Below, in pieces: positions 21,309-28,360 of a stretch of DNA of 64,000 nt. Both the position numbers and the translations under genes were made by a program. The stretch is from Candidatus Baldrarchaeum yapensis (GTDB lineage Archaea; Asgardarchaeota; Baldrarchaeia; Baldrarchaeales; Baldrarchaeaceae): contig JAEOSH010000002.1 of NCBI GenBank assembly GCA_016840465.1, positions 36,782 to 100,781 of the forward strand, written 5' to 3'. Under the pieces are notes generated by a model. That model did not search any database, was not told the origin of the DNA, and worked only from the letters and a program-made list of their open reading frames with translations. Each line of letters begins with the position of its first letter. Position 1 is the first letter of the stretch.

Positions 21309-22019
21309 TTGATGTTTTCAAAATTCCCTCTTTTAATCTTCCTTTTGAGTTCATGCATCTGGAATACTGATATCAGGTTCGGGAAATTAAATGAGCATGG
21401 TGGTGAGTTAATGCAAAGGGATTTGAGAGCCATAGTTGCACGTGAGGCCGCGCGATTGCTATACTTTGGCGTTGTAGAAGAATATTATGCTGCAAAAAGG
21501 TTAGCTGCAGAAAATTTGGGAGTTAACGTTCTTCCAAGTAATAGAGAAATTGCACTTGCGTTGGACGAGTTTGCAGATTTGATAGAGGGAGAGGATAGAG
21601 CCAAGAGACTTGTCAAAATGCGAGAAGACGCCCTAGAATTGATGTTAATCCTGAAGGATTATCGTCCAAGGCTGATAGGGAGTGTTTGGAGGGGGACCAT
21701 TACCAGAAATAGTGACATTGATATTGAGGTTTTTTCGGAGAATGTGGATGACGTTGTAGAGACGCTGATCAAGAATGGCATAAAGGAAATAAGAGTGGAG
21801 GAGGTCAAGAAGCACACAGATGATCTGAAGAGAGTATTTATTCATATAAAAACAAAATCTAGAAGGGGATTTGAAGTGGATATAGCCGTTAGGGATTCGA
21901 ATGACCACGATAAATATGAAATTTGCGAAATATTTGGAGATCTTAAGAAAGGACTTTCTATAAAGGAGCTTAAAAGGGTTTTAAGGGAAAATCCTGTGCA
22001 GAAATTCGTCCCTATATGA
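21309..22019 (+). CDS. Pol-beta-superfamily nucleotidyltransferase of unknown specificity
   Basis: GSVWRGTITRNSDIDIEVF (GS...DxD NTase motif). The N-terminal 34 aa of the ORF look spurious; likely start is the Met near 21411. Confidence 0.5.
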   Translation: MMFSKFPLLIFLLSSCIWNTDIRFGKLNEHGGELMQRDLRAIVAREAARLLYFGVVEEYYAAKRLAAENLGVNVLPSNREIALALDEFADLIEGEDRAKRLVKMREDALELMLILKDYRPRLIGSVWRGTITRNSDIDIEVFSENVDDVVETLIKNGIKEIRVEEVKKHTDDLKRVFIHIKTKSRRGFEVDIAVRDSNDHDKYEICEIFGDLKKGLSIKELKRVLRENPVQKFVPI

Positions 22020-22028
22020 GGGATTGAT

Positions 22029-23273
22029 ATGTTGGCGGTTGTACTCGCGGCGGGAGAAGGACAGCGCTTACGCCCACTCACCTTCTCGAGACCAAAGCAC
22101 ATGCTACCAGTGGCAGGAAAACCGCTATTGGAGCACATCATTAGATTTCTTGTTTCTGCAGGACTGAAACGAATAATTTTAGTTGTTAGCTATATGAAGG
22201 AAAAAATTCAAAACTTTTTTGGCGACGGAAGACGTTTTAATGCCAAAATAATGTACGCTTTCCAGGAGAAACCATTGGGAACCGCTCATGCTCTACTTAC
22301 CGCCGCCGAATACGTAGATTCTGACAAATTCCTCTTAATTTATGGAGATGTACTTACAAAAAATGACAACATCATAAATCTATTAAGATTTTACGAAAAA
22401 AGTTGTGCAGATGCTGTGATTTCGACATATTATGTTCAGGACATCTCAAAATATGGGCTTTTGGAAATAAAAAATGGAAATGTAACAAATATTATCGAGA
22501 AACCAGAAAATAAGAGTTCCGGCTACATAAATGCTGGAATATACGTATTTAACTCTGCAATTTTGGATACTATAGAGAAAGTAAAACTTTCTGTTCGTGG
22601 CGAATACGAACTCACAGACGCCATTCGGGAAATGATTACACGCGGTTATACGGTTAAAGCGTACGAGTTAAAAGATTGGTGGATTGATGTGGGGTATCCG
22701 TGGGATCTCCTGAGAGCAAACGAGTTACTGATGCGTGATCTCCAGACTGATATAAGAGGGATTGTAGAGGAATATGCTGTAATAAAGGGTCCTGTTGTGG
22801 TGGGGAGGGATGCCGTTATTAGGGCAGGAGCTTACATTGAGGGGCCTGTAATAATAGGAGAAGAGAGCGACATTGGGCCAAACTGTTACATACGCCCGTA
22901 TACGTATATAGGGAGGCGATGCCGAATAGGTAACGCGTGTGAGGTGAAAAACAGCATAATAATGGACGGAACACACATTGCTCATCTATCTTACGTGGGT
23001 GATAGCATAATTGGCGAGAATGTGAATTTCGGTGCCGGCACAATAGTAGCAAATCTTAGATTTGACGATAAACCTGTGAAGGTTACTATTAAAGGTGAGA
23101 AAATTAGTAGCGGAAGAAGGAAACTTGGTGCGATAATTGGAGACAACGTAAAAACTGGTATCGGGTGCACAATAATGCCCGGAGTTACTGTAGGTCCAAA
23201 CAGCATCCTTGGACCGAACGCCCTAATATTACATGATGTCCCACCGAATACTGTTGTTAAGGATAAGTGGTAA
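22029..23273 (+). CDS. Bifunctional sugar-1-phosphate nucleotidylyltransferase / left-handed beta-helix acyltransferase (GlmU-like)
   Basis: MLAVVLAAGEGQRLRPLT..KPLL N-terminal NTase signature; C-terminal hexapeptide repeats. Confidence 0.75.
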   Translation: MLAVVLAAGEGQRLRPLTFSRPKHMLPVAGKPLLEHIIRFLVSAGLKRIILVVSYMKEKIQNFFGDGRRFNAKIMYAFQEKPLGTAHALLTAAEYVDSDKFLLIYGDVLTKNDNIINLLRFYEKSCADAVISTYYVQDISKYGLLEIKNGNVTNIIEKPENKSSGYINAGIYVFNSAILDTIEKVKLSVRGEYELTDAIREMITRGYTVKAYELKDWWIDVGYPWDLLRANELLMRDLQTDIRGIVEEYAVIKGPVVVGRDAVIRAGAYIEGPVIIGEESDIGPNCYIRPYTYIGRRCRIGNACEVKNSIIMDGTHIAHLSYVGDSIIGENVNFGAGTIVANLRFDDKPVKVTIKGEKISSGRRKLGAIIGDNVKTGIGCTIMPGVTVGPNSILGPNALILHDVPPNTVVKDKW

Positions 23274-23342: not shown

Positions 23343-23861
23343 ATGTCCGGTCGCGATGAGAATTATGAGAGGAAAATTCGACGAGAAATAGACAAGATGC
23401 TTGCGAAGTTTGCGGGGAGGATGTTATCCAGAGCATATGATGCGATCTACCATAAATTGCTTAAAGCGATGCAGGATGGAGTGATAAAGGTTGATGAGTA
23501 TGGTATAGAAATGGATCCAGAGACTTTTAGAAAGATTTTCCCCGCACTTGCAGAAGAGGTGTTCTCGGGAGTTGCTAAGTGTTCCATTTCTGGTGTTAGA
23601 AGTGAAGGAACGAGTTATGTCGATGAACTTAGAAATCCGGATGTGATAAGCTTTATAAGAAGGGCAAAGAGCGTAGATGAGGCCCTTGAAGTTATAGATT
23701 TTCTTGAAAAGCGTGGTGAAATTTCAAAAGAGTATGCTGATCGTTTACGGAAGCAGTTACGCGAAAAGGGATTAGAAAGTTTCGGTCCTCGAAAAGAACC
23801 TGGTTATTACATAAAGAGATATTACAAACCACGTTTTTACGATTTTGAGGAGGAAGATTAA
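23343..23861 (+). CDS. Hypothetical protein (172 aa, charged, acidic C-terminus)
   Basis: ORF only; no recognised motif. Lies 8 nt upstream of, and co-oriented with, the large membrane protein. Confidence 0.35.
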   Translation: MSGRDENYERKIRREIDKMLAKFAGRMLSRAYDAIYHKLLKAMQDGVIKVDEYGIEMDPETFRKIFPALAEEVFSGVAKCSISGVRSEGTSYVDELRNPDVISFIRRAKSVDEALEVIDFLEKRGEISKEYADRLRKQLREKGLESFGPRKEPGYYIKRYYKPRFYDFEEED

Positions 23862-23868
23862 AAGATAG

Positions 23869-26031
23869 TTGCTGGTGAGATGCATGAAGGAGATTCTCAT
23901 TTCATTGCTAATATCTTTGTTACCACTATTTGTAGCGCTCACTTTAATGATATGTTTAAAGAAGGCTAAGAGGTCAGAACTTTTAGTGCGCATATGCGCA
24001 GCATTTGTTATTTTTTGGACAATTTACTGTGTTTTTTCGGCAATGTTCTTTATGTTAATGGGAAGAGAGCCCGAAGTACTAATTACTAGGACAACATTCG
24101 ATTGGAATGCCGTGTTGTTGATGTTATCATTGCTGTTAGCCGAGGCTACACATGCCTTCATTGTTGCGGTCGTGTATTATCCGCTCTTCCTTTATCCGTT
24201 AATTTACGTTTTAGCGCCGATAATTTCCGTCTTAATACTGTGTATTAATGTGGGCACATCACGATTGAAAGAAGTAGATACGTGGATCGACATAAAGTCT
24301 TATGAGAGGATGAATTGGAAGGAAGAAGTGGAATTTCTGAAATTGTCAATTGTAAGCCTTCCAGTATCATTGTACTTCCTAGTAACGATACTGAGACTAT
24401 TCGGATATGAAGAGAACCCAATGGCCGTGGGAACTACGGCTCTTGGCTGGATAATTGAAGTGTTCGTAGTAACGCTACTGGCGTTTATTCTCGGAGCGCA
24501 TATTTTGTATGCGGCAAGAGTCTATCATCAAGGAGTCTTCTTAGGGGAGGTTTTGAAGGGTAGAATCTTTCGAGGCTTCCTTGTGGTCGGGCTAATAATG
24601 TCCATAATGAGCATCTTGACGTTTTTGCAGGCACACCCGATCGCCATTTACACGATACTCTACTTTTCCGCATACTACATTATGGTTGTAGGAATATTTC
24701 TTCTCTTTTTTAGATTCTTTGAACCGATCTCGGTCTACATATTTGTGAAATTGATTGCTTTCCTGAAGTCACCACGAGAGCTTAGAATTTCCCCCATCTC
24801 TATTGTGATAAGCGTAATGTGTGCTGTAGTTGCTGTTAGCGTGACATTGCTTTTCATGCGAACATTCCTTATCACTGTTCAACAACCGTTGACATACAGA
24901 ATATCAGAAGACATTTCTAAATGCTTGATACGGCAGGTTGCAACGTATAACTCCATATTGAATGTTTGTGCAGTACTAACAATGTCTGCTGTGCAAACTC
25001 TCCTAGCTATAGTAGTACTCTCAGCTACCGCGTTTGTCACGAAGAAGGCCCTCCTGGGACGCGGAATAATCGTTCCGGCAATCTTTACTGGAATCGCCAA
25101 GGTTTTCACGGATATCATTCTTGTCAAGATAGAAAGATCCCTATTCTGGGAAGTGTTTGTATTCTCTGCATTCAAGATCTCTAATGTGATGATCTTTTTG
25201 CCACGTTCTGCATTCCTGAAGATGGATCCTATACTGGAGACATCATTCATTGCATTATTTTATCCGTACGAGATACTAAAAACAATTTCGACTATATTGG
25301 TGCTGATAATAGCGTTTTATCTGTTCTTTGGAGGCATTCATACGTTTAGAGTCAAACAAGCGCGTGCAAATCTGTTATTCGTATGTGAAAGAGATGGTTT
25401 GCTTGATCGCGATACATTATTTAAACCAGTGGATGAACTGCCCATACTGATCGATTCTGTAGAATTAAATGATAACGAGAGGAGAATTCTTGACCTTTTG
25501 AGTCAGTACAAAGCGATGAAGTTCGCATCGCTTTTGGAATTGTCAAATATGAACCGAAAAGAATTAATTTCCGTGTTGAAAAGTTTGAAGCGCAAGAAGT
25601 TAATAGAGATGTATGCATGCGATTTGGAAGTGGAAGTTCCGGTACCCTCAATTCTCGGGCTTTATGTCGTTAGTAATGAGGGTCTACCCATATATTCTGA
25701 AGAATTTGCAGAAAAAGCTATAGATCCGACTTTGATTTCTGGAATGTTCTCCGCAATTTCTAGCTTTTTAAAGGAAACTGTAAGAAGTGCAGAACGGCTA
25801 AGAAAAATAGATCACGGGGATATAATTATAGTGCTCGAGTATGGATCTAAGTTTTTCGTCGCATTAATAGTCGACCGAGAGACGCCAGAAATCCGTATGC
25901 GCCTGAAGAACTTTGTTACGATGTTTGAAGTGAAATACGGCCGATTCATTAAAGAGGGGTACGTTGATCTTGGAAGGTTCGCGGACGCAAAAGATCTCGT
26001 GAGGGAGGTTTTTGGCGAATTCCTACAATAA
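23869..26031 (+). CDS. Polytopic membrane protein (about 13-14 predicted TM helices) with cytoplasmic C-terminal wHTH + Roadblock/LC7-like domain
   Basis: First about 480 aa are strongly hydrophobic. C-terminus NDNERRILDLLSQYKAMKFASLLELSNMNRKELISVLKSLKRKKLI looks wHTH. Following GLPIYSEEF...ISGMFSAISSFLKE...IIIVLEYGSKFFVALIVDRE...RMRLKNFV matches the Roadblock/LC7 beta-alpha-beta-beta-alpha pattern. Confidence 0.5.
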   Translation: MLVRCMKEILISLLISLLPLFVALTLMICLKKAKRSELLVRICAAFVIFWTIYCVFSAMFFMLMGREPEVLITRTTFDWNAVLLMLSLLLAEATHAFIVAVVYYPLFLYPLIYVLAPIISVLILCINVGTSRLKEVDTWIDIKSYERMNWKEEVEFLKLSIVSLPVSLYFLVTILRLFGYEENPMAVGTTALGWIIEVFVVTLLAFILGAHILYAARVYHQGVFLGEVLKGRIFRGFLVVGLIMSIMSILTFLQAHPIAIYTILYFSAYYIMVVGIFLLFFRFFEPISVYIFVKLIAFLKSPRELRISPISIVISVMCAVVAVSVTLLFMRTFLITVQQPLTYRISEDISKCLIRQVATYNSILNVCAVLTMSAVQTLLAIVVLSATAFVTKKALLGRGIIVPAIFTGIAKVFTDIILVKIERSLFWEVFVFSAFKISNVMIFLPRSAFLKMDPILETSFIALFYPYEILKTISTILVLIIAFYLFFGGIHTFRVKQARANLLFVCERDGLLDRDTLFKPVDELPILIDSVELNDNERRILDLLSQYKAMKFASLLELSNMNRKELISVLKSLKRKKLIEMYACDLEVEVPVPSILGLYVVSNEGLPIYSEEFAEKAIDPTLISGMFSAISSFLKETVRSAERLRKIDHGDIIIVLEYGSKFFVALIVDRETPEIRMRLKNFVTMFEVKYGRFIKEGYVDLGRFADAKDLVREVFGEFLQ

Positions 26032-26040
26032 TCAAATTGG

Positions 26041-27003
26041 GTGCTAAAAGTGAGCGAGATAAGGCCTATAAAGATAAGTAAGGGTTTAAAAGTCAGTGAT
26101 TTGATCCACGAATATGGAAAAGCCGGGGTTTTCGGGGCAGGTAGGGTCTCACGAGCCGTAGAAATCTTAAGCGAGATGTTTTCTGATGACAAAGCTACTG
26201 TCTATTTAGGCTTCTCGGGTGCGCTCTGTGCAGCTGGTATGCGACAAATATTTGCAGAAATGATAAAAGAGGGGCTTTTGGACGTAATTGTAACTACTGG
26301 TGCTAATGTTACTCATGATATAATAGAGGCGCTTGGAGGCAGACATATAAGGAACATTAAGTACTTAGATGATGAGGATCTCCGTAGAAGGCAATTAAAT
26401 AGAATATTTGATGCATTTATAAGCGATGAGGCTTTTATTACCTTTGAAAAGAAAATCCAGATGATACTTTCTGATATAGAGGAAAAAAAGCGTAAAAATG
26501 GAATTGCTCCCTTCGAACTCATCTGGGAAATTGGCTACAGAATAAACGATCCGAATTCCATGGTGCGGCAGGCGGCTCTGAATAATGTTCCGATATTTTG
26601 CCCAGCGATAGTAGACTCAATACTAGGTCTGCAGATCTATCTCTTTTCTCAGGAAAATACCATCAAGATAGATCCCTTGAAGGACTTAAGGAAGATAATA
26701 GATATAACATTCGAATCTGACCGTAAGGGTGCAATTATTTTGGGAGGTGGTGTCCCCAAAAACTTCATATTTCAGGCAGCGCTCATTACAGGGAAGGGTT
26801 TTGATTATGCAATTCAAATAACGATGGACAGGCCTGAGGCCGGGGGTCTTAGTGGAGCCTCGATTGCTGAGGCGATCTCTTGGGGTAAAGTTAAAAGTGA
26901 TGCGCAGTGGGTTGATGTTATAGGTGATGTGACAATAATCTTTCCGTTGATCCTTTCGGCAGCATTGGATAACATGGGAAAGGGCAAAGGTTCTACTCGC
27001 TAA
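26041..27003 (+). CDS. dys: Deoxyhypusine synthase
   Basis: GFSGALCAAGMRQIFAEMIKEGLLDVIVTTGANVTHD...GGGVPKNF. Confidence 0.85.
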   Translation: MLKVSEIRPIKISKGLKVSDLIHEYGKAGVFGAGRVSRAVEILSEMFSDDKATVYLGFSGALCAAGMRQIFAEMIKEGLLDVIVTTGANVTHDIIEALGGRHIRNIKYLDDEDLRRRQLNRIFDAFISDEAFITFEKKIQMILSDIEEKKRKNGIAPFELIWEIGYRINDPNSMVRQAALNNVPIFCPAIVDSILGLQIYLFSQENTIKIDPLKDLRKIIDITFESDRKGAIILGGGVPKNFIFQAALITGKGFDYAIQITMDRPEAGGLSGASIAEAISWGKVKSDAQWVDVIGDVTIIFPLILSAALDNMGKGKGSTR

Positions 27004-28360
27004 AATAGTACCAGGGCTCATGCAATTTTATGGTCTCTTTTCTCTTCTTTTCCAGGCCATACCTTTGGTAAGGCTTTGTTAAATGTCTATGTGCACGAGG
27101 CGGTGGTATGTAGAGTCCATCTTTCAGATCTCGCTTTATTTCTTCTACTTCTTTTTCTGCATCGACCAATTTTAAGCCACACTTTTTACAGCGATAACCA
27201 CCTGATCTGCCCAATGACTTCATACGTTTTCCGCACTTTGGACATTTGGGGTTTCTAGAAATAAACTTTCTTGCCAACTTTACGATTTCAATTTTTTCAA
27301 GGTTTACGGTAAATTTCGAGCCATTCAGAGGTCTAACACCCCCATATGCTATGATTTCATCGCCCGGTTCGAGTTTTTGAATTATTTTGCGAAAATCTCC
27401 AGTGGGCTCATATGCTGCAGCATCTATGGCGCCCGTCTCATCCCTTAGTCTCACTATTACGTGCCCACCCTCAATTACCTCGGGTTTAGAATCAACTATA
27501 GCTTTGATTTTACAGGGCAGATACGGCCTTAGCTCGGATATTTTCCTATAAACTATAAGATGATCATCGGTTCCCTGGTTTGTCCGAAAAATCACCCAAC
27601 ATGCGATTGGCTCGCCCGTCTTGATGTACTTTAGCGCTTCGATTAATACCCTAGGATTCTCCCCCCTAATGCCAAAGAGCACCGGATCTGGGCCATGTGG
27701 TGTAATGAGAATTCTACCGGTTTCATAATCGACATTATTAAAAGTGAGCGGAAAGGTTTCCCTATCCATCAGCATGACTGATTGCGGATCCACTCTCCTA
27801 GGAGTTCCCCAATTCTCTCTTTTCCTATACGCAAGCAACTCGTACGTGTAATCGCCATCAAGAGTTTCGCCGACTGCTGCAAGAGCTCCTATAATTCCTC
27901 TGCGTTCCTTATAGCCTATTATCTCAACATTCAACATTTTTGCGATTCTCTCTGCCTCCTCGATTTCGACAATATCTCTTATTACCTTTTTTGCAAAACA
28001 CTTTAGCGGTGTAGGAATCTTTCCTCTTAAGAACGCTATACCGGGATTTGTCTTTTCATCCTCGATCATAAACCATTTTTCTACTTCCTGTATGACTGTA
28101 CGTTTTATTTCTTCGATAAGATTCTCGTTTACGAGAACTCTTATTGCTACCGCGCCGTTTCCCCTCGTCTTGTATGGTACATTTGGGTTTAACCTGATAA
28201 GGTTGGGATAGTCAATGAATTCAACTTCGAACTCCTTTACAAGTTTTCTGATAATTTGTGCTGCTATGTAAGTCGTACATCCACCCCTTACCGAGTCTGT
28301 ATCATCTATTCCTATGTGAAACTCTATTTTGGGGCCAAAATGCGAGATTTTGCTCACCAC
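26993..28360 (-). CDS. tiaS: tRNA(Ile2) 2-agmatinylcytidine synthetase
   Basis: N-terminal FHIGIDDTDSVRGGCTTY kinase-like signature; C-terminal zinc ribbon CPKCGKRMKS...YRCKKCG. Confidence 0.75.
   Translation of the reverse strand: MVSKISHFGPKIEFHIGIDDTDSVRGGCTTYIAAQIIRKLVKEFEVEFIDYPNLIRLNPNVPYKTRGNGAVAIRVLVNENLIEEIKRTVIQEVEKWFMIEDEKTNPGIAFLRGKIPTPLKCFAKKVIRDIVEIEEAERIAKMLNVEIIGYKERRGIIGALAAVGETLDGDYTYELLAYRKRENWGTPRRVDPQSVMLMDRETFPLTFNNVDYETGRILITPHGPDPVLFGIRGENPRVLIEALKYIKTGEPIACWVIFRTNQGTDDHLIVYRKISELRPYLPCKIKAIVDSKPEVIEGGHVIVRLRDETGAIDAAAYEPTGDFRKIIQKLEPGDEIIAYGGVRPLNGSKFTVNLEKIEIVKLARKFISRNPKCPKCGKRMKSLGRSGGYRCKKCGLKLVDAEKEVEEIKRDLKDGLYIPPPRAHRHLTKPYQRYGLEKKRKETIKLHEPWYYFSE

Follow-up and report, generated by a model that had tools for sequence, protein, structure and literature searches.

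A gene in the 64-kb stretch of Candidatus Baldrarchaeum yapensis DNA analysed here (the window) encodes a 715-residue membrane protein, P0001, which ends in a longin-type domain. We found this domain to be a mobile module that Asgard archaea have attached to the cytoplasmic side of many membrane proteins. By its sequence, P0001 itself is a member of an uncharacterised, Asgard-specific family of integral membrane proteins for which neither Pfam nor NCBIfam holds a family. As to function, we tentatively propose that the longin domain of P0001 may serve, anchored at the membrane, as a platform on which a cytoplasmic partner docks; the foremost candidate for this partner is a small GTPase. Three points hold whether or not the partner proves to be a GTPase: a new, sequence-defined Asgard longin module that is missing from Pfam, a membrane-domain family that has no recognisable fold relative among the listed structural matches, and the reassignment of the tail domain from Roadblock to longin. 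The gene had drawn attention through an earlier reading of the window (the original prediction), which described a transporter-like membrane protein with a winged helix-turn-helix and a Roadblock/LC7 domain in its tail, paired with its neighbouring genes. The parts of the gene are given below, with residue numbers following the 715-residue version.

23884..26031, + strand: gene of the 715-residue membrane protein (P0001, NCBI locus tag ACTSXJ_01605), from the open reading frame and an identical public protein
23884..25329, + strand: membrane domain, residues 1-482, about 12 long helices
25144..25221, + strand: long β-hairpin in the membrane domain, residues 421-446 (strands 421-432 and 435-446), from the AlphaFold model and alignment columns
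25360..25452, + strand: linker, residues 493-523, disordered (pLDDT about 40 here only) and poorly conserved by alignment column
25471..25638, + strand: winged-helix-like unit, residues 530-585 (model helices 530-541, 547-554 and 558-570, strand 577-585)
25651..26025, + strand: longin-type domain, residues 590-714, the most conserved part of the protein
25723..25845, + strand: module signature DPxL[IV]SGMFSAIxSFxKET...L..IDHGD....EYG, residues 614-654, covering helix α1 and the β3-β4 turn

The structure of P0001 was modelled with AlphaFold from an alignment of 106 rows (A2), made up of full-length relatives and trimmed modules. The model reached a mean predicted local distance difference test score (pLDDT) of 88.2 and a predicted template modelling score of 0.88, and its sole disordered stretch is the linker at residues 493-523; a single-sequence model, with a pLDDT of 40, was discarded for the alignment-based one. 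In agreement with the original prediction, the model is that of a polytopic membrane protein with a cytoplasmic tail in which a winged-helix-like unit precedes a domain of the Roadblock/longin superfamily, and the tail segments quoted there correspond to real predicted elements (helices in residues 530-570, then strands and helices in residues 590-714). The terminal domain consists of strands 590-597 and 602-607, helix 615-633, strands 641-643, 648-653 and 657-663, and helices 668-688 and 702-714, all with pLDDT 85-97. This order, β-β-α-β-β-β-α-α, is the longin arrangement. What sets a longin domain apart from a Roadblock domain is that the N-terminal helix is missing and a further helix at the C-terminus stands in for it (PMC10933270). 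The Roadblock order, α-β-β-α-β-β-β(-α) with its N-terminal helix, was not found in the model: strand 577-585 precedes β1, and two helices come after β5.

Comparison with solved structures and with sequence profiles bears on the same question. Foldseek returned 575 matches in the PDB at E≤10, and the best 50 of the 575 are all of the longin/Roadblock class (about 85-160 columns aligned), a significant three-dimensional similarity to solved longin domains. These 50 include the N-terminal domains of AP σ and μ, COPI ζ and δ, TRAPP Bet5 and Trs23, Mon1-Ccz1, Fuzzy-Inturned, MglB and dynein LC7, together with Roadblock2 and Roadblock3 of Prometheoarchaeum MK-D1 (E 2e-3 to 3e-2, target-normalised template modelling score up to 0.64). 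Roadblock structures aligned over 88-102 residues, versus 111-128 for the top 15 longin-type matches. In Pfam, the isolated tail gave sub-threshold matches to Intu_longin_1 (E 0.002, 18.8 bits, cut-off 23.7) and Fuz_longin_1 (E 0.031, 14.9 bits, cut-off 26.1), and to Robl_LC7 (PF03259) at E 0.1 (12.8 bits, cut-off 23), with 40 residues covered. Weak matches to the first two families recurred among 35 diverse copies of the module (Fuz_longin_1 in 10, Intu_longin_1 in 4), alongside Sybindin in 3 and Robl_LC7 in 3 at E≥0.1. Searches of PDB sequences with phmmer, using the tail and then the module profile, yielded insignificant matches only. On the strength of the element order, the Foldseek alignment lengths and the recurrent weak longin matches in Pfam, we conclude that the domain is longin-type; the earlier assignment to Roadblock/LC7 is right at the level of the superfold, and fails at that of the sub-type.

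An exhaustive HMMER search of 1.84 billion cluster representatives returned 623 matches at E<1e-3 and 35 full-length relatives at E<1e-30, a number of relatives that puts the predicted features far beyond chance. About 30 proteins of 700-760 residues align with P0001 from end to end at 27-35% identity. The exhaustive search was needed for this: a word-indexed search retrieved only P0001 itself when started with the whole protein, one fragment with the common motif LISGMFSAISSF.KET...IDHGD when started with the tail alone, and 12 matches with the module profile. Across an alignment of 24 family members (A1), conservation peaks in the C-terminal domain, with helix α1 and the turn that follows it at a mean column conservation of 0.75; the invariant columns are L617, G620, A624, F628, E631, I642, G645, D646, E652 and Y653. 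Next come the N-terminal two thirds of the membrane domain and the residues W422 and R441. Conservation is poor in the middle of the membrane domain, in the linker and in the three-helix segment. A pattern scan with the most conserved peptide over one genome per species (185,579 species) confirmed 77 loci. All labelled loci among them are Asgard (Baldr-, Loki/Prometh-, Hod-, Hermod-, Odin- and Thorarchaeota and Harpocratesius), and include the cultured Lokiarchaeum ossiferum (locus L079, CP104013.1, about 1,855,166-1,857,454, - strand); a few are labelled only as uncultured archaeon. The scan was seeded with one motif, and more divergent, non-Asgard copies may escape it.

The longin module, of about 130 residues, recurs in hundreds of other proteins. 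With a local hidden Markov model (HMM) of the module, we detected a full copy in 102 other representatives, of which 69 have a hydrophobic segment upstream; in 51 of these 69 the module starts no more than 15 residues after that segment (median 6), and in 67 of the 102 it lies at the extreme C-terminus. Labelled members of these other module-bearing clusters come from Heimdall-, Hod-, Hermod- and Lokiarchaeota. Genuine major facilitator superfamily (MFS) transporters carry the module in six clusters (PF07690, 36.5-100 bits, cut-off 33.4), at the cytoplasmic C-terminus and directly after the last membrane helix. The MFS proteins concerned are P0054, P0064, P0071 (with a Lokiarchaeota label), P0123, P0148 and P0069, and are metagenomic. 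Further hosts are proteins that fall into no family and have 4 or 7-8 membrane helices, and proteins with one membrane helix that also carry a signal peptide and Ig-like ectodomains, in some cases with a KaiC-like ATPase after them (P0090, P0111); others are a Heimdallarchaeota TPR protein (P0076) and a receiver-domain protein (P0110). The module also occurs in free-standing proteins of 114-160 residues, and three times in the 2171-residue P0067. Asgard surveys list about 130 orthologous groups of the Roadblock/longin superfamily and unusual fusions, including longin with two-component domains; within the available portions of the published survey text, fusions to membrane or transporter domains are not mentioned.

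For the membrane domain, the original prediction counted about 13-14 hydrophobic helices over 480 residues. The hydrophobic region is real, with many hydrophobic segments across residues 1-490 by hydropathy; the count has to be revised, as the AlphaFold model resolves the region into about 12 long helices and a β-hairpin. Its well-conserved part is the N-terminal two thirds (about residues 100-295), which carries the motifs LPxSLY, LGWxxE and FEPxS, and its middle (300-420) is variable. In the β-hairpin, W422 is nearly invariant and R441 invariant among the 24 aligned members. A long β-hairpin, confidently predicted, is unusual within an otherwise all-helical membrane domain. The full-length protein has zero matches in Pfam and NCBIfam, even at E≤1, in keeping with the view that this is not a described family, and none of the 24 full-length family members has a convincing match in Pfam. 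Neither a fold match for the membrane domain among the listed PDB matches from Foldseek nor an internal repeat was found, the latter by mutual hhalign comparison of the sub-profiles 1-135, 136-305 and 306-500 (probability ≤1.2%). With no Pfam family, no listed fold match and no internal repeat, the description of the domain as transporter-like is unsupported beyond its hydrophobicity. Some relatives are longer (P0018-P0025, P0031 and P0036, 840-1128 residues), their variable middle being expanded with extra membrane helices. Since both ends, the conserved N-terminal stretch of the membrane domain and the longin module at the C-terminus, are kept in spite of this expansion, they look like the functional core.

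Between membrane and longin domains, the model has three helices followed by a strand (577-585) that runs into the first longin strand, which is the three-helix bundle and β wing of winged helix-turn-helix regulators. When a profile of residues 522-590 from 22 members (A4) was compared with PDB sequences, it matched winged-helix proteins almost exclusively, among them 2lvs (3.4e-5), ribosomal eS25 (0.003) and, at E 0.02-1, Lrp/AsnC, MarR, SelB, Zα and the cullin WH-B. The segment of P0001 itself gave sub-threshold Pfam matches to MarR (15.8 bits, cut-off 24.6) and TrmB (15.2 bits, cut-off 25.6). The winged-helix assignment for residues 530-585 is thus reasonable. A DNA-binding role for a winged helix tethered to 12 membrane helices, as suggested earlier, is not supported, because the segment is poorly conserved: it is the least conserved block of the tail, with a mean column identity of 28% and zero invariant or near-invariant columns. 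Conserved recognition-helix residues and invariant basic residues were both looked for among the orthologs, and none was found. Many of the matched winged helices bind protein rather than DNA, and this one would probably act as a spacer or a protein-contact element.

The original prediction also took the membrane protein gene to form a functional unit with its neighbours, the small gene upstream and the deoxyhypusine synthase (DHS) gene downstream. Both neighbours are real, the small upstream protein being identified as DUF2095, and they lie among five consecutive genes on one strand, separated by 9-69 nt, of which the membrane protein gene is the fourth:

21309-22019: nucleotidyltransferase-domain protein, first of the five co-directional genes
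22029-23273: archaeal bifunctional GlmU-type enzyme, second of the five
23343..23861, + strand: DUF2095 protein, 172 residues (PF09868, 2.3e-19)
26050..27003, + strand: DHS (PF01916, 2.4e-102; NF002630), with an alternative start at GTG 26041

On the opposite strand (-), DHS is followed by the tRNA(Ile2) agmatidine synthetase TiaS and then by a UbiA-type prenyltransferase with a DGGGP-synthase-like match. Conservation of the pairing in other genomes, on which the original prediction had let its claim stand or fall, was not observed: tblastn at E≤1e-5 with DUF2095, DHS, GlmU, TiaS and UbiA found no homolog within 5 kb of the family gene at any of the 77 loci (0/77). Likewise, an all-against-all clustering of the flanking open reading frames gave not one neighbour family common to the window and another locus; the loci compared include the two other Baldrarchaeota and the Odin group, which make up the window's clade in the distance tree. 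The order DUF2095, membrane protein, DHS recurs only in contigs that carry the identical protein; there are 14 of these with the same neighbours, evidently from one population. In Prometheoarchaeum, DUF2095 adjoins thyX (PMC9931769). As the neighbours are absent beside all 77 related loci, we reject the linkage with DUF2095 and DHS, and the adjacency looks incidental. Given the short gaps, a transcript shared with these two genes is possible and carries no functional implication; DUF2095 and DHS would then be co-transcribed companions rather than functional partners.

A fixed context does exist elsewhere in the family. The largest clade (45-59 loci, with Loki, Hod, Hermod and Thor labels and one Odin-labelled locus) has the order ABC ATPase, small FtsX-like permease, profilin-like gene, divergent HDAC-family deacetylase, family gene, cyclase and amidohydrolase; examples are L013, L021, L024, L031, L032, L037 and L065, along with about 40 others, at locus coordinates of roughly 0-9.5 kb. 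The deacetylase match is strong (PF00850, 7e-73), and that of the profilin-like neighbour sub-threshold (PF00235, 2.7e-4). Just 3' of the family gene, 27 loci encode a separate small protein of about 153 residues (cluster C8). It has no Pfam match and is a distant copy of the longin module (E about 1e-4 to 1e-5 with a broad module HMM); it could serve as a heterodimer partner of the fused module. Such stand-alone copies were placed as follows:

L024, 7904-8365, - strand: stand-alone module copy
L031, 7932-8393, - strand: stand-alone module copy
L062, 9024-9545, - strand: stand-alone module copy

The fixed context of the largest clade is absent from the window locus, and the window holds no second copy of the module, even by the broad HMM.

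Several known systems can be compared with P0001. The first longins of the tri-longin Rab guanine nucleotide exchange factors (GEFs; Mon1-Ccz1, Fuzzy-Inturned/CPLANE and HPS1-HPS4/BLOC-3) and TRAPP sybindin/Bet5 are the only Pfam families that recur in the weak module matches. These are soluble eukaryotic proteins with three tandem longins, or small TRAPP subunits, whereas P0001 has one C-terminal longin on an archaeal 12-helix protein. The longin SNAREs (VAMP7/SYBL1, Sec22b and Ykt6) likewise have a longin in a membrane-anchored protein, but in the order N-terminal longin, SNARE coiled coil and one C-terminal anchor; P0001 reverses this, with N-terminal polytopic helices and a C-terminal longin, and its model has no SNARE or coiled-coil segment. 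Proteins of the Roadblock/LC7/MglB family (PF03259), the solved Asgard ones included, have a helix at the N-terminus and no more than one at the C-terminus, compared with none and two in the P0001 domain. By functional analogy, Ragulator-Rag-SLC38A9 and SRα(SRX)-SRβ would follow the principle proposed here, that of a Roadblock or longin platform held at the membrane and docking a GTPase. In Ragulator-Rag-SLC38A9 the platform sits beside the transporter, and in both Ragulator and SRα-SRβ the platform is anchored through another protein, lipidated or membrane-embedded, and its partners have been identified. In P0001, by contrast, platform and membrane protein are a single chain, and the proposed partner is a hypothesis. 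A similar Asgard-specific shuffling of longins onto prokaryotic signalling domains is seen in the fusions of an 'NPRL2-like longin' with two-component domains (Liu et al., bioRxiv 10.1101/2020.10.19.343400), and the receiver domain on the module-bearing P0110 parallels them.

How might such a protein work? Among eukaryotes and bacteria, longin and Roadblock domains are characteristically dimeric platforms that dock small GTPases, and often they are exchange factors or activators (PMC3747258, PMC10933270). All of the families closest to the module in sequence, namely Mon1/Ccz1, Fuzzy/Inturned, HPS1/4 and sybindin, supply subunits of Rab GEFs. Because of these relationships, and since docking GTPases is characteristic of longin and Roadblock domains, a GTPase platform is the reading that we favour, tentatively. 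The module, probably as a dimer, would form a membrane-fixed docking platform for a cytoplasmic partner, most plausibly a non-lipidated Asgard small GTPase, by analogy with Mon1-Ccz1, TRAPP, the SRX domain of SRα and Ragulator. In this way, GTPase-type signalling would be linked to what state the membrane domain is in or where it lies, in a direction that we can only infer. Such an arrangement would speak to an open problem, namely how Asgard GTPases act at membranes without lipid anchors (PMC10933270, PMC4917890). Asgard Rab-like GTPases have neither prenylation cysteines nor prenylation machinery (PMC10933270), and when expressed in eukaryotic cells they show no membrane localisation; Lokiarchaeum is listed as lacking CAAX motifs and prenyltransferases. 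Longin/Roadblock domains, and small GTPases by the dozen, count among the chief eukaryote-like traits of these archaea. The family, spread over Asgard lineages, and the MFS and other membrane hosts of the module offer defined, testable candidates for membrane-fixed GTPase platforms, and L. ossiferum is in culture. It would be a long step further, and we regard it as improbable, that Asgard archaea in general recruit non-prenylated Rab-, Arf- and Rag-like GTPases through integral-membrane longin platforms, by means of one mobile module on transporters, receptors and the 12-helix protein. If so, the module would dock GTPases, or exchange their nucleotide, at defined membrane proteins, and would be a prokaryotic, single-polypeptide forerunner of Ragulator-SLC38A9, SRα-SRβ or Mon1-Ccz1, providing a concrete route from archaeal membrane proteins to the GTPase-marked membranes of eukaryotes.

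Several points weigh against a GTPase platform. All longin matches in Pfam lie below the gathering thresholds, and the domain does not belong to a curated longin family. Longin-class folds can also do work in which GTPases have no part: some regulate SNAREs and others bind cargo or adaptors, and GAF-like domains that bind ligands belong to the wider fold class. A motif scan together with Pfam found no small Ras-like GTPase in the window, and the MglA-like gene for which the original prediction had suggested a search was not there; the only GTPases present are YchF/Obg-like, NOG1, FtsY and aEF-1α. Nor is there a small GTPase among the recurrent neighbours in the 77 loci, which are HDAC-like, profilin-like, ABC/FtsX, stand-alone module and cyclase genes. 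Both the dimerisation of the platform and its binding of a partner are predicted by analogy.

The lack of a GTPase nearby would suit an alternative in which the module is an intramolecular regulator or sensor that binds a metabolite or senses a cytoplasmic cue and gates the attached transporter or channel, with no GTPase partner. The module's place at the C-terminus of genuine MFS transporters and of other polytopic domains is typical of transporter regulation, and its conserved polar cluster (E631, T633, S635, D643, H644, D646, E652, Y653 and R671) could be a ligand site. However, the module also follows single-pass receptors, accompanies ATPase and TPR domains, makes up a whole protein of about 115 residues and occurs in tandem triplets, settings that offer nothing to gate, and the membrane domain of P0001 has no transporter family, fold or repeat signature. 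We therefore consider this alternative somewhat unlikely, if the most serious competitor. Less probable again, in our view, is that the membrane domain forms the functional core, as a lipid, glycan or S-layer enzyme or a translocase, and that the winged-helix and longin tail anchors it to actin/profilin or an ESCRT-type scaffold. The conserved N-terminal two thirds of the domain, with the invariant or near-invariant W145, E148, W189, E192, E280, K289, W422 and R441 and the conserved β-hairpin, would fit an enzyme or translocase, and in the largest clade the gene lies beside a profilin-like gene and an ABC/FtsX pair, profilin having the longin/Roadblock core fold (PMC10933270). Yet it is the tail that is most conserved and not the membrane domain, the profilin context is missing in the window's clade, and no similarity to a known enzyme or translocase family or fold was seen in Pfam or among the listed PDB matches.

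Of these explanations, we give least credence to the one closest to the original prediction, in which a Roadblock/MglB-type domain works with an MglA-like GTPase, the winged helix-turn-helix makes the protein a membrane-tethered transcription regulator or sensor, and the gene is paired with those for DUF2095 and DHS. The winged-helix fold is supported, and the five co-directional genes, with their short gaps, could be one transcript. Against this, the topology of the domain is longin, with Robl_LC7 matching only at E=0.1; the winged-helix columns are poorly conserved and hold no invariant basic residue; the pairing is absent from 77/77 related loci, two other Baldrarchaeota among them, and DUF2095 occurs in other contexts elsewhere; and no MglA-like gene lies in the window. 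The Roadblock sub-type and the gene pairing are thus largely refuted, and we judge the explanation as a whole very improbable.

With regard to the gene itself, both open reading frames lie where the original prediction put them, at 23343-23861 (+, 172 residues) and 23869-26031 (+, 720 residues from a TTG start). For the longer, real as it is, the true start is most likely ATG 23884, giving 715 residues rather than 720, because a GGTGA motif lies 5-10 nt 5' of this ATG, public gene calls begin there and the N-termini of homologs align there; the TTG at 23869 adds 5 codons. The intervals change accordingly, from 8 to 22 nt between the DUF2095 gene and the membrane protein gene, and from 10 to 18 nt between the latter and DHS if DHS is taken from its publicly called start, 26050. 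The public entry with the identical sequence is annotated as a hypothetical protein from a Candidatus Baldrarchaeia archaeon, an Asgard lineage, and the neighbouring genes mark the source as archaeal. A promoter and terminator scan, run with bacterial models on this archaeal host, gave counts at or below the shuffled expectation. The 3' ends of DHS (+) and TiaS (-) overlap convergently by 11 nt (26993-27003); on the - strand, the TiaS reading frame shares 7 nt (28354-28360) with that of the UbiA-type prenyltransferase upstream of it.

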